A stretch of DNA of 64,000 bases from Octopus vulgaris. Lineage: Eukaryota. This document shows positions 3,616-54,219 of the stretch, one piece after another (the stretch's first letter is position 1; every line of letters starts with the position of its first letter). The DNA is taken from assembly GCA_951406725.2 (NCBI GenBank), contig OX597816.1, forward strand, positions 177,444,001 through 177,508,000, in the 5' to 3' direction. The notes under the pieces were generated by a model. That model made no database searches, was not told where the DNA came from, and worked only from the letters and a program-made list of their open reading frames with translations. The position numbers and the translations under genes are program-made.

Positions 3616-3714
3616 TCACGACGGTCGTTTGTGTTGTATCAACATATTTAGATGCAGAAAATATTCAAACTAATATATCTGAAAGTACATGTTAACACAA
3701 CGTTTTCAAGGCGA
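3616..3714 (-). ncRNA. Decayed type I hammerhead ribozyme motif with long stem II
   Basis: Minus strand: tcgc-CTTGAAAA-c-gttgtgttaacat...atgttgatacaac-a-CAAA-cgaccg-TC-gtga; 13-bp stem II and GUC site retained, core mutated. Confidence 0.45.
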
Positions 3715-3801
3715 TCCAGAATTATTTAAATTCGAAGTGAACTAAGAAAATATTTCGAGCACCACGCAAACGCATACAAAATAATGTTAAAAAGAAATAT
3801 A

Positions 3802-4208
3802 ATAGGCGCAGGAGTGGCTGTGTGGTAAGTAGCTTGCTTACCAACCACATGGTTCCGGGTTCAGTCCCACTGCGTGGTACCTTGGGCAAATGTCTTCTGC
3901 TATAGCCCCGGGCCGACCAATGCCTTGTGAGTGGATTTGGTAGACGGAAACTGAAAGAAGCCTGTCGTATATATGTATATATATGTGTGTATGTGTTTGT
4001 GTGTCTGTGTTTGTCCCCCCTAGCATTGCTTGACAACCGATGCTGGTGTGTTTATGTCCCCGTTACTTAGCGGTTCGGCAAAAGCGACCGATAGAATAAG
4101 TACTGGTCTTACAAAAGAATAAGTCCCGGGGTCGAGTTGCTCGATTAAAGGCGGTGCTCCAACATGGCCGCAGTCAAATGACTGAAACAAGTAAAAGAGT
4201 AAAAGAGT
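3802..4208 (+). mobile_element. SINE family A, full length
   Basis: ATAGGCGCAGGAGTGG start to (AAAAGAGT)n tail. Confidence 0.92.
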
Positions 4209-4817
4209 ATAATCTAAGAAAAGCTATTTTTGTATTTAACTCTTGGTGACGTTAGTGGATAATGAAAGCATAAAAGATAAACATATGAAACATGGAGGTT
4301 CTACGTCACGACAATTAGTTATCTATCAAATATACTAAATATTTTTAGAAAAATTATGCTTATTATATACCTAGATAACGTTCGGCCAGTATTGGGCTAG
4401 GTCATGTATAATTTAATAGTGCTACTTGGAAAAGACATTTAAAGGTGTTTCATCGACCCACGCTCCCTCTGCCAAAATTACTGGCTTTGTAGCAAAATTT
4501 GAACGTTTGAATACAAACAACATTTTTACATATAAAAAAAACAATTCACTTTTGAGAAAATAACTTAAGCTCCACGTAATTGTTTTATTGAAAACGTGAT
4601 TAAAGTATGTAAGTTATGATTGTAAGTTAAATCTTCAGGAATACCAGAATTATAAAACAAAAGTTTAAAATCTTGGAAACAAAATTAGGAAATATAGAGA
4701 TATAGTTTATAAAGGAATATGTATGTATATATATATATATATATATATATATATATATATATATATATGTATGTATGTATATATATATATATATATATAT
4801 ATATATATATATATATA

Positions 4818-5039
4818 TATCTATACAATATGTTACATTACTCGGTAGTCAAGATAAAACTCTGAGTTTCAGATGCCGAAGTGGAAATCCACAACACCAT
4901 CTCTTCGGTTATCTGGCTATTTGAAAACGTTTTCAAATAGCCAGATAACCGAAGAGATGGTGTTGTGGATTTCCACTTCGGCATCTGAAACTCAGAGTTT
5001 TATCTTGACTACCGAGTAATGTAACATATTGTATAGATA
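4818..5039. repeat. Perfect 222-bp palindrome with no spacer, part of a (TA)n-flanked element extending to ~5105
   Basis: Centre GAAAAC|GTTTTC at 4928/4929; arms are exact reverse complements. Confidence 0.95.
4943..5005 (+). ncRNA. Hammerhead-like motif (mirror copy on the minus strand at 4852-4914)
   Basis: agataa-CCGAAGA-gatg...catc-t-GAAA-ctcagag-TT-ttatct; 6-bp stem I, stem II, near-palindromic stem III; U4C core variant and one extra U. Confidence 0.55.
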
Positions 5040-5384
5040 AATTTCCTCTATTTACATAATATTGAGGTCTCTTTCTTTCCTTTGTTATCTTACCGTTTTA
5101 TCAATATATATATATATATATATATATATATATATATATATATATATGCATACTTTATTTAAAAGCAGCAGAAAATTCAACAAAAGCTGTTTCACGTTCC
5201 CGTTCGTTTTGTTGAATTTTCTGCTGCTATTAAATAAAGCATATTACTCAACCACTGGTATTTGAGTAGTCTTTTTTCCACATTGTTTCACATTTATGTG
5301 TTTACTCCGGATATATATATATATATATATATATATATATATATATATATATATATATATATATATATATATATATATATATAC

Positions 5385-5755
5385 ATAATAAAGAGTCAGT
5401 TGAATTAGGTACTTAAGTTGAAGGACCAAGTCAGTCCGGTATTATACGCATAGCTCGAAGTATGGAGAATAGAATCAAAATAAGCAACAGGATATCAAGT
5501 AGTAATGCAGTACTAGAAGAAATTGTAGTCTATTCTTAGCCACTTTGCTACAATAGCGACAACATGAATTTCTTCCATCTTCTTACTATGTCAAAATATT
5601 TAAGAAAAAATATATTAATGTGGCCTACTTGTTAAATTCTGTATTTTGTGCACTGCATTCAAATTGATGTAATGATTGCATTGTTCTATTAAATAGAGCC
5701 GCTTGAAACGGTCGTCCTGTATTACTACTTGATATCCTGTTGCTTATTTTGATTA
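5385..5755. mobile_element. (TA)n-flanked element with an internal inverted repeat
   Basis: AATCAAAATAAGCAACAGGATATCAAGTAGTAAT (~5472) inverted at ~5720-5754; GAAACGGTCGTC (hammerhead 3' half) at ~5705. Confidence 0.6.
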
Positions 5756-6202
5756 TATATATATATATATATATATATATAGAGAGAGAGAGAGAGAAAG
5801 AGAGAGGGATAGGGATAATGTATCCAGGTGGGTACTGCTCAAGCACTCAGCTATAATCCTACCGCATCGAGTGGTAAGGAGCACCTAAGATTACTTGAGG
5901 TAGGCAATCCTCACTGTATTTCATCCAATGGATAAATCTTGGATTCGCTTCGCTGGATTATAAATAGTTTACCGAGTGTATATTTAAGACGATTACAATG
6001 AATACGGAGATTAATATGCAGATTTATCTACTTCCCTATTAATTTTCCCCTTTCCGACGAAGAGCCATGCTTAGCACACCACACCCACTTCTTTTCCCAT
6101 CGTAAACTGAGCGTCAACCTCATACATCCGCAGTGTTCCTCCTATTGACTTTTGTTGTTTTGTTTTTAGCTTTATTTTCGATTTGCCTATATAATCTCTT
6201 AC

Positions 6203-51540: not shown

Positions 51541-52589
51541 TTGTTGACACTTTCACATTCCGCAAAAAATCCACAATTTTATTTAATTTGCTCTGCGGAA
51601 AGGACTGTTTTAACGAAGTCGCGTCTTATCCCTGCCTTCGTAACGCGGAGTAGATAAAACAGGGGACAACTTATGAAGGGAATTTTCTTTCCGTTATCTG
51701 TCTCGTTTCTCTGTTTGTTTGTTTTTTCTTTCGTTGTTCGAAAAAAAGTCCGTTTTCTATGTTTTTGATTTTTATGTTCTCGTTTCTAATTTTATTATAC
51801 GGTCGAACGCCACGCATTTATTTACAAGTATGTATATATATATATATATATATATATATATATATATATATATATATGAATGCGTATGTATACGTATATA
51901 TGTAAATATAAACGCACGTATATAGGTATATATATTCATGTTTATATATACTTATATATATGTGTATATATGTACATATATATACGTATATAAGTATATA
52001 TTTTATATATATATAAGTATATATATATGTATATATATATGTATATGCGTATGTATATGTACATATATGTATTTATATACGTAAGTATATGTATATATAT
52101 ATATATATATATATATATATATATATATATATATATATATATATATATATATATATATATATATATATATATATATATATATATATATATATATATATAT
52201 ATAACTCGGAGAAAGTTAGAGGTTGTGAATCCAACCCACTAAGGAATAATATATGTCCAATATACTGCTGGTAGAATACCCAATTATTAATACACAAGTG
52301 TTTTTTATTGCATTGCAATTACATTACCTAGTGTACTAAATTGGTGAATGTAAAGAGATATTTTATCATTAATTTATATAGCAATAAGAAAATGGAGGGG
52401 ATCAATAGGTGGTTCATCAACTTTTAGACATTATATTATGTTAACTTATTTATTTACTAAACTGACAATTACAATAATATACATACACGTATAACATATT
52501 ATGCTTTACATATAAGATATAAAATATATTAATATATAAGTATACCAGTAATTATTATAAAATAACATACATGAATATAAATTGGGAAA

Positions 52590-52718
52590 ATAACTTAGAG
52601 CTGTTTCAGCCAAGAGGTAAACATACCTCATTCTACATTTATTACTAAAGTAGACTGAAGTAATAGGTAGATGAAATTGAGGTACTTGGGTGTTTTTCTA
52701 GGCTTCGTCAAAGATTAT
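52590..52718 (-). ncRNA. Type I hammerhead motif with long stem II in a TA-flanked element (~52203-52790)
   Basis: ataatct-TTGACGA-agcc...ggct-GAAA-cagctc-TA-agttat; same stem III type as 20441, two point changes. Confidence 0.6.
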
Positions 52719-53119
52719 AAAGTACATAATGTTAAGCTATAAATAAATATAAATATAAAATAAATAAACATACACACATATTTAAATACTTGTATATATA
52801 TAGATATACATATACATACATATATACATACATATACACATACATACATATATATATATATATATAAGTATATGTATATATGTGTATATGTATATATATA
52901 TATATATATATATATATACCTATGTATATGTATATCTATTTTTATATATATATACGTATGTATATGTATATATATGTATATATATACATATGTATATCTA
53001 TATATTCACTTTCTTTTTATAGCTCGTGTTTCACGTGAAGCGTTTTACCTAATTATTGCAGTTCTTTCTTCTTTTTTTCCATTAATTTCTTTATCACAGT
53101 TAACTTTTCTTCTTTGAAG

Positions 53120-53432
53120 ATCGTGTGACTCTTACAAATGATGTAGTGTTTGAAGGGGTCATAGATGATGGTGTGGTTGACCTGCTAATGCTCCATAGAA
53201 AATTTCTATCTAAGGTGGAGCTGATAACGTTAAAACAAAAGCAAACCGACAATACTGAAATTCCACAACTCCAGTTAAATTGGTTGCAAATGATATTGCT
53301 GTGGAATTGCCGCTGAAACAAGAAGATCTGAAAGTTTTTGGACAGTACAAAGAAACGATGCGCCGTAAACATGAAACAATTTTGGTTAAGTTATTCACCC
53401 CTCGAGCCGACGTTGATGATGGTCAATTATAA
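53120..53432 (+). pseudogene. Exon-like or pseudogene-like coding segment of unknown product
   Basis: Pyrimidine tract + AG at 53118-53119; protein-like text in two frames joined by one shift near 53260; TAA at 53430. Confidence 0.25.
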
Positions 53433-53778
53433 GACAGTATATTGTGTTCCATATTCTTCGAGTGACTGCCATCCCATCATTACGACTATCACCCGCACAG
53501 TAGGCAGCATCTTTTATGGTAAGAACATACTCTACTACGATATTGATATTGGTTTCAACCTTTGGTACAAGGCCAGCAGTTGTTGGGGAAGAAGTAAGTC
53601 GATTACATCGCCCTTGGTGTTTAAGTGGTACTTGTTTTATCGTTCCCGAGGATGAAAGGCAAAGTCGATCTCGGCGGAATACTACAATATGAATATGATT
53701 CTTATTTATTCCCTAACGAATTTCTCTTCATATATATATATATATATATATATATATATATATATATATATATATATA

Positions 53779-54086
53779 TAAACTTAGATAAACTTAGATA
53801 TGTTTCGACCAAAGATTGGTCCAGGCCATGTCTAACTTAATAGCACCACCTGATAGGATTATTCGGATCCTGTTTAAGTCAAGTTTTGCTTAAGTCAAGT
53901 TTTGTTCAAGTAGTGAGTTCTTGTTGGGTGAGTTGTATCCAATTATGGGTGGCTTATTTGATATTCTTTGAAGGAATCTATCCAGATTCCGTTTAAAGTT
54001 GATGGGATCCTTTTCCTCTTTGATCTCCCTCGGGACAATGTTAAATAGGGCAGGGCCTGTTGAGGAAAAGAAATTATGTAGCAGTG
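53779..54086 (-). mobile_element. CR1-like LINE 3' fragment of another subfamily
   Basis: GPALFNIVP...FKRNLDRFL; variant 3' stem-loop; (TATCTAAGTT)n tail. Confidence 0.75.
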
Positions 54087-54184
54087 TACATGTAATCCAA
54101 ACAAGAAAACAAAAAGACAACAACACGAGGACGTGGAACAAATAAAGTATTATTGGACGCTCAGGAAAGAAGGGAAGAAGGAGG

Positions 54185-54219
54185 GTTTGACGTTTCGAGC
54201 GGAGCTCTTCGTCGGAAAC
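54185..54219 (-). ncRNA. Minimal type I hammerhead within a solo PLE-type repeat (54087-54290)
   Basis: gttt-CCGACGA-a-gagc-tcc-gctc-GAAA-c-GTC-aaac; all stems intact, ACGT palindromic stem III, U4C variant. Confidence 0.72.

Follow-up and report, generated by a model that had tools for sequence, protein, structure and literature searches.

Minimal hammerhead motifs at the ends of probable truncated Penelope-like elements in Octopus vulgaris, with one unexpected core variant

Type I hammerhead motifs with a palindromic stem III are known from metazoan Penelope-like elements (PLEs), and Cervera and de la Pena 2014 (PMC4209133) ascribed the mostly single motifs to truncated copies of these elements. 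We analysed a stretch of 64,000 nucleotides of Octopus vulgaris DNA (contig OX597816.1, positions 177,444,001 to 177,508,000; hereafter the window) in which eight sites carry such motifs. The octopus elements share with those of the 2014 report the type I shape, the palindrome at positions 15.2-16.2, the extra base after A9, the opposite-strand pairs and the U3-A8 variant. The 56 representative cores of its Fig. S3, none from a cephalopod, all carry U4 and A6, which the descriptor required. Unlike these cores, octopus lineages are fixed for U6 or C4, and in families C and E an additional base precedes G12.

Closely comparable layouts have been described for endonuclease-bearing PLEs of the Neptune/Nematis type and the Hydra clade (Craig 2021, 10.1101/2021.04.23.441226). 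These share with the octopus elements a C-terminal GIY-YIG domain, a CX2-5CXXC or CxCX5C linker, inverted 5′-truncated copies, a tail, (TA)n targeting and hammerheads in the pseudo-long terminal repeat (pLTR). The role of the hammerhead is called unclear there and the relevant passages do not discuss core variants; the octopus elements are assigned to these groups by motif only. In the Poseidon element PAc of Anolis (Frangieh 2024, PMC11167929), reverse transcription likewise starts downstream of the pLTR and produces the tail, and the hammerhead is weak and protein-assisted; its start site is not homologous to the target, whereas octopus copies of families F (one) and G (two) show UAUAUA. Non-LTR retrozymes (Cervera 2020, PMC7229834; Li 2026 preprint) are also short, non-coding, PLE-related units with type I hammerheads and very high copy number. 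They are, however, described as tandem arrays with circular RNAs, whereas the octopus elements are dispersed, ragged and linked to open reading frames (ORFs). Single core changes at the same positions occur naturally, U4C in a viroid and A6C in phage Bcep176 (PMC3088659, PMC7151607). The passages concerned present them as rare single cases, none fixed in a high-copy retroelement, and do not mention A6U.

What is known already comprises PLE hammerheads, stem III palindromes, solo copies and the targeting of TA. An earlier note, made from the letters of the window alone, had proposed a large and diverse set of solo pLTR or retrozyme-like RNAs; the population is of a known kind, less exotic than that, with one unexpected variant (U6). 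We did not find octopus PLE hammerheads described in the literature: cephalopod together with hammerhead gave only 235 Rfam hits in giant squid, and an Octopus vulgaris repeat paper does not contain the word 'ribozyme'.

Probable Penelope origin of the motif-bearing families

The type I hammerhead shape is present at all eight sites listed in the earlier note. Each site is a member of an interspersed family (50 to 2,971 first-look candidates per site), and together they fall into seven families (A, B, C, E, F, G and H). For each site the loci of the best 10-30 relatives were examined (numbered L), a sample biased toward the query; an unselected sample consisted of 60 stretches of 10 kb (600 kb) taken at fixed round positions. 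The window is rich in repeats, with 106 tandem-repeat rows, mainly of TA type, and fragments of several retroelements, and its density of hammerhead motifs is ordinary for the genome (2.8-Gb assembly).

Five of the seven families (A, B, C, F and H) run upstream into Penelope-like GIY-YIG or reverse transcriptase (RT) sequence. Their 3′ ends are fixed and enter (TA)n, and their ragged 5′ ends form a continuum that reaches the coding sequence: the shared upstream sequence spans 2-875 nt in 30 loci of family A, and 4 to at least 1,500 nt in 25 loci of family B. An RT followed by a GIY-YIG endonuclease at the C terminus was found for families B, whose relatives extend to the RT, and F; for A, C and H the endonuclease lies upstream of the motif. 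A near-full-length copy of family F (L123) consists of an inverted truncated copy, a pLTR, a frameshifted RT plus GIY-YIG, a second pLTR and TA, the layout drawn in Fig. 2 of Craig 2021, and its ORF matches RVT_1 (E 2e-7). In family A a related GIY-YIG endonuclease is located 2.6 kb upstream (L125). Family C shows a Hydra-type endonuclease upstream in L057 and, in L060 and L063, the start of an ORF downstream by read-through. The relatives L106 and L109 of family H have a GIY-YIG domain with a CxCX5C linker upstream, and in most members of this family stem I does not close right behind the cleavage site.

The translations of the A, B and F endonucleases contain a CX4CXXC linker and two cysteines inside GIY-YIG; linker and CCHH motif agree with the Neptune/Nematis type, taken as one group. 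Families C (L057) and H (L109) agree with the Hydra clade, with a CxCX5C linker, no CCHH and a (TA)n target. All in all, pLTRs, partial tandems and inverted 5′-truncated copies were seen (L123, L060, L063 and window 4815-5106), and inverted pieces resembling 4815..4927 occur in several relatives of family C. Families E and G share the architecture of a PLE tail. The PLE origin suggested by the earlier note is thus borne out by five families linked to PLE ORFs and by one near-full-length pLTR-ORF-pLTR copy.

We consider it very probable that most of the elements are 5′-truncated PLE copies that end in (TA)n and mostly comprise the pLTR with its hammerhead. Three points weigh against this reading as far as origin is concerned. 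The labels Neptune-like and Hydra-type were assigned from motifs rather than from an RT tree. The ORF link of family A comes from one locus and crosses a low-complexity untranslated region of 2.6 kb. For families E and G, five tblastn queries gave no match in 13 E loci or 14 loci upstream of G. The Pfam GIY-YIG scores in the tested PLE frames lie below the cut-off.

Several sites read differently once their families are known. The families were said to be unrelated in sequence; they are indeed many, but 38399 and 54185 belong to one family (84% identical), and the endonucleases of A and B are 64% identical, so that not all families are unrelated. Site 35045, taken for a short non-coding unit, actually lies at the 3′ end of a fragment of 1.75 kb that contains a GIY-YIG frame. 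Both motifs at 4852 and 4943 are present, but in one insertion with a 113-bp inverted duplication, and the shape at 3616 is there in a degenerate motif with CAAA in place of GAAA. Among the listed remnants, 5705 and 30341 are damaged copies that belong to families with hammerheads, and 6051 is a 5′ half with a weak match (E 3e-4), but no hammerhead-bearing relative of 43128 or 49425 was found among the loci examined. A palindromic member at 5148-5310 had been missed.

Core variants, folding and activity

Most copies had been regarded as possibly dead through one or two core substitutions. Private decay does account for part of the changes: C3U at 52590 is private to this copy of family G (CUGAYGA in 8/10 loci), the changes at 38399 in family A are of CpG type, and 35045 in family B has an altered U16.1 and a 9-nt deletion. 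Several other deviations, U3-A8, U4C and A6U, are fixed in their families. Consensus cores come back to CUGANGA in E (8/12 loci) and G (8/10), but not in the two commonest types, where the deviations are fixed in the lineage. Overall, a CUGANGA or U3-A8 covariant core was found in E, F, G, I and the U4 subfamily of A, and not in B, C or main A. The core UUGAAAA of family F, present in 12/12 loci, is the known U3-A8 covariation. C4 occurs in 13 of 22 unselected motifs of family A and makes up 73-83% of the depth in four public runs. Family C has the core CCGAAGA (U4C) with an extra pyrimidine before GAAA in 10 of the 13 loci that reach the core, and its older relatives carry U4. U4C is a recurrent, family-fixed deviation. 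Decay as its cause was ruled out because C4 is the majority base and CpG decay runs from C to T.

In family B, U6 was found in 23/23 unselected and 20/20 selected motifs. Exact pattern matches across the genome gave U at position 6 in 14,944 cases, A in 158 and C or G in 385, i.e. U6 in 96.5% of 15,487. We also aligned contigs of four public runs, under four organism labels, to a B copy (threshold 3%; depth is not a copy count). The variants listed inside the motif are N7, four CpG positions and H17, where A changes to U; position 6 is not among them, and around 20 flank positions vary among the variants listed. At N7 all four bases occur (C 15%, G 13% and U 22% in the largest run). Ten of the 158 A6 copies were examined: three fall in an old basal group, five are nearest to U6 copies and two are unclear. 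Because three are basal and five are nested among U6 copies, A6 is probably ancestral in B, and U6 was probably kept through later subfamilies with all four bases at N7. The A6 copies were ruled out as active masters, since they make up 1% of the matches and are old and basal or nested among U6 copies in the ten examined. We did not find an A6U hammerhead in the literature on core variants; Lunse 2017, on PLE hammerhead variants and outside the present comparison, may list such cores.

Folding predictions differ between families. For family F the cofold minimum is the double-hammerhead fold (−13.3 kcal/mol, against +3.5 for the monomer fold), and the model supports obligate dimers in this family. 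In C, E and G, too, the dimer is predicted to be favoured over hammerhead folds of the monomer. Alternative folds win in 6/7 folding cases. Published PLE hammerheads are, in the passages on their activity, weak even as dimers or in need of protein. The minimal motifs likely cleave weakly, as a dimer or with the help of protein. Contigs of public runs guessed to be RNA cover family A, but are no proof of its transcription or of RNA ends.

U6 is likely a tolerated and attenuating variant that putatively still works, about evenly balanced against a fold kept after catalysis was lost. The freedom of N7 and H17 argues for a continued catalytic constraint in B. Set against activity are the following points. 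The B pattern counts vary positions 6 and 7 only and fix the other 28 letters, and so cover well-preserved copies only. In families A, B and I, two monomers are predicted to fold more stably than the dimer. In the measurements quoted from Perreault 2011, cleavage by A6C is slower than 0.1 per min and that by U4C strongly diminished in vitro, and hammerhead mutants of the Anolis PLE were reported without effect on insertion in vitro (Frangieh 2024); selection on catalysis is therefore not assured. Low activity of position 6 mutants, dispensability in vitro and an equally conserved loop II point the same way.

Several of these points are shared by the strongest alternative, to which we give somewhat less than an even chance: the A6U and U4C motifs would be catalytically dead and kept for another reason, for instance as a protein-binding fold or as promoter DNA. 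It opposes only the activity part of the reading of truncated PLEs, which would then not need cleavage. Position 6 changes strongly lower activity, the Anolis catalytic mutants still insert in vitro, no RNA ends were seen at the site in Anolis, Naiad PLEs spread without hammerheads, the dimer folds of A and B are not favoured, and the near-invariant loop II of B extends conservation beyond the core. However, the variable positions of B are the two that hammerhead chemistry leaves free. Position 17 shifts between A and U, yet G is found in 121/14,944 matches (0.8%). Moreover, the natural U4C of a viroid retains its function, and in Mn2+ A6C does cleave. The coexistence of canonical, covariant, U4C and A6U lineages in one genome, with copy numbers and ages, provides natural alleles for testing the role of the hammerhead.

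Retrozymes, chance and abundance

The short units could instead be non-autonomous retrozymes with a circular-RNA cycle of their own, mobilised in trans by PLE proteins. Consistent with this, most copies are 150-300 nt long and non-coding, families E and G have no ORF within the examined sequence (for G at least 750 nt upstream), and retrozymes derive from pLTRs according to passages of the Li 2026 preprint. But tandem units define retrozymes, and none of the 19 A/B-type motifs in the 600-kb sample has a same-strand neighbour within 1 kb; two opposite-strand pairs were seen, and the 64-kb window holds no tandem array of hammerhead units. Nor are the 5′ ends discrete, given the continuum into the ORFs of five families. 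The separate retrozyme-like RNAs of the earlier note thus did not hold up, and we consider them improbable. The idea may still apply to families E (20441) and G (52590), because neither was linked to an ORF. For the set as a whole, the sequences fit the truncated elements that Cervera 2014 invoked for single minimal hammerheads, and not tandem retrozymes.

Enrichment depended on descriptor and sample. In the window, the standard descriptor with an exact core gave no match; with one mismatch it gave one match (short stem II; 0-1 in 12 shuffles), and with a long stem II three (shuffle range 0-4). No hammerhead family was present among the 150 listed of 257 Rfam matches. A family-tuned descriptor gave five matches against 0-1 in 20 shuffles, a post hoc result in which one match is probably due to chance. 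In the 600-kb sample the same descriptor, in which positions 4, 6 and 7 were left free, produced 22 matches against 0-1 in five local dinucleotide shuffles. A second descriptor, made of four core patterns picked after seeing the families and leaving palindromy unscored, gave 37 matches. A palindromic stem III is present in 21 of these, with nine different palindromes, and most of the other 16 appear one change short of one. The shuffles yielded 0, 3, 5, 3 and 3 matches, none of the 14 palindromic. A (TA)4 lies within 150 nt downstream of 13/21 palindromic matches, compared with 12% of random positions; together with the 3′ ends in (TA)n, this bears out the proposed TA targeting. As for the comparison with shuffled sequence called for by the earlier note, the window alone does not exceed chance with the standard descriptor, but the unselected sample shows a clear excess. 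The motif population is real and not due to chance, and its members have, as had been proposed, the form of a minimal type I hammerhead, combining stems I and II with GAAA, a palindromic 15-16 and UH.

A chance origin of the motifs in AT-rich repeat DNA could draw on the unenriched standard descriptor, the absence of Rfam hammerheads among the listed matches and the two unsupported remnants (43128 and 49425), but we give it practically no credence: it is refuted for the population because both 600-kb scans beat their shuffles, with 21 palindromic matches against none on independent sequence, and unrelated families carry the motif at the same pLTR position, with U3-A8 covariation.

These cores escape standard descriptors and Rfam, so the number of hammerheads counted in animal genomes is perhaps too low. 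Scaled up from 21 matches per 600 kb, the genome would hold some 100,000 motifs of intact appearance (range about 60,000-150,000), comparable to the axolotl figure of 120,000, which is taken from a section heading.

Proposed insertion cycle and other features of the window

In read-through copies, UAUAUA lies at the element's own 3′ end in one copy of family F and two of family G; in family C the stretch is only 3 nt. Because the 3′ end of the F and G read-through copies falls on TATATA in the element, these sequences suggest that UAUAUA of the element may pair with the target TA tract. The following cycle can be proposed. A partial-tandem master would be transcribed, and the RT/GIY-YIG protein would nick a TA tract and prime just downstream of the pLTR (at UAUAUA in two families), a target-primed reverse transcription modelled on that of Anolis PAc. 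Synthesis would mostly end after 150-300 nt to leave solo pLTRs, and an occasional fold-back would create an inverted 5′ piece such as that at 4815-5106. The hammerhead would serve the master RNA, the solo copies being passive by-products that subsequently decay. In the B lineage, A6 would have changed to U early and been kept through the expansions, with the rest of the core under selection. An extended version, in which the family-specific stem III palindromes (9 in 21 sampled matches) act as pairing keys that would confine dimer cleavage within a family, seems to us doubtful.

Table 1. Hammerhead-bearing elements and remnants in the window (positions are those of the window)
Feature	Position	Strand	Remarks
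Family H, old 3′ end of Hydra-type PLE	3376..3803	-	motif 3616-3714, core UUGAAAA, CAAA for GAAA
Family C inverted 5′ duplicate, mirror hammerhead 4852-4914	4815..4927	-	99% identical to right arm
Family C pLTR with hammerhead 4943-5005, ending 3′ in (TA)n	4930..5106	+	stem III ACUCAGAGU
Family D head-to-head remnant	5148..5310	.	relative in L125 with core CCGAUGA
Family K remnant, hammerhead 3′ half at ~5705, 5′ core deleted	5544..5755	+	relatives L143, L188, L006
5′ half of A-type hammerhead	6040..6075	+	weak match, E 3e-4
Family E inverted tail piece	20195-20375		
Family E, hammerhead 20441-20527, canonical CUGAUGA	20373..20556	+	stem III ACAGCUGU
Family I member, stem II deleted	30340..30432	+	complete relatives in L135, L197
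Family B 5′-truncated Neptune-like PLE between TA tracts	33419..35165	+	thumb, Cys linker, GIY-YIG, pyrimidine-rich 3′ untranslated region, pLTR
GIY-YIG frame, CX4CXXC linker, frameshifted after residue ~104	33723..34160	+	Pfam PF01541 E 0.0013, below curated cut-off
Family B hammerhead, core CUGUAGA (A6U, family-fixed)	35045..35080	+	damage private to this copy: U16.1 to C and loss of 9 nt
Family A, U4 subfamily, hammerhead 38399-38433	38357..38549	+	canonical core; two G-to-A changes at CpG sites
Family F pLTR and inverted tail piece, intact hammerhead 43646-43685	43477..43759	-	U3-A8 covariant core, stem III ACCGGU
Family G, hammerhead 52590-52718, long stem II	52201..52860	-	this copy: C3U and stem III change; relatives CUGAYGA/ACAGCUGU
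Family A main subfamily, intact minimal hammerhead 54185-54219	54093..54295	-	core CCGACGA (U4C), stem III ACGU

Further observations concern individual families. The Rfam model mir-9 matches 4893-4964 on both strands (score 60.6, gathering score 58.6); it was rejected, the match being the perfect inverted duplication of family C, which is a likely source of false miRNA calls. Further pieces of PLEs beside TA tracts, at 29486-29659 and 20943-21023, are an RT fragment and a short 3′ end of family C without hammerhead. Upstream of a family E copy (L121) and at 8456-8725 of L167, B-type and A-type ends of opposite strand face each other head-to-head. Those in L121 meet directly in a short palindrome without intervening TA, possibly through a template switch between two families. 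Two 3′ ends occur in family G, roughly 170 nt from each other, and both enter TA (52201-52380 of the window, minus strand). A 98% identical twin of this G copy lies about 365 kb away (L095, contig position 177,862,231) and has private changes in common with it, likely as the result of a local duplication. Upstream of another G copy, L102 contains a further Neptune-like PLE end, in which the GIY-YIG frame is open and the hammerhead is of the U3-A8 kind.

The 5′ side of the family H copy is interrupted by a very abundant tRNA-SINE-like element (3803-4210), with many matches across the loci. Two long inverted repeats that resemble miniature inverted-repeat transposable elements occur at 7110-7970 and 8131-8744 (257 nt at 88% and 200 nt at 100%) and enclose degenerate TTAGGG/CCCTAA tracts. 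Broken ORFs of non-LTR retrotransposons lie at 10461-12073(-), 22960-23979(-), 45751-48662(-) and 58058-61311(+), with RVT_1 confirmed in two of the three tested. Finally, L129 contains an intronless frame of 302 residues (5374-6279, plus strand) that resembles a G-protein-coupled receptor by eye.

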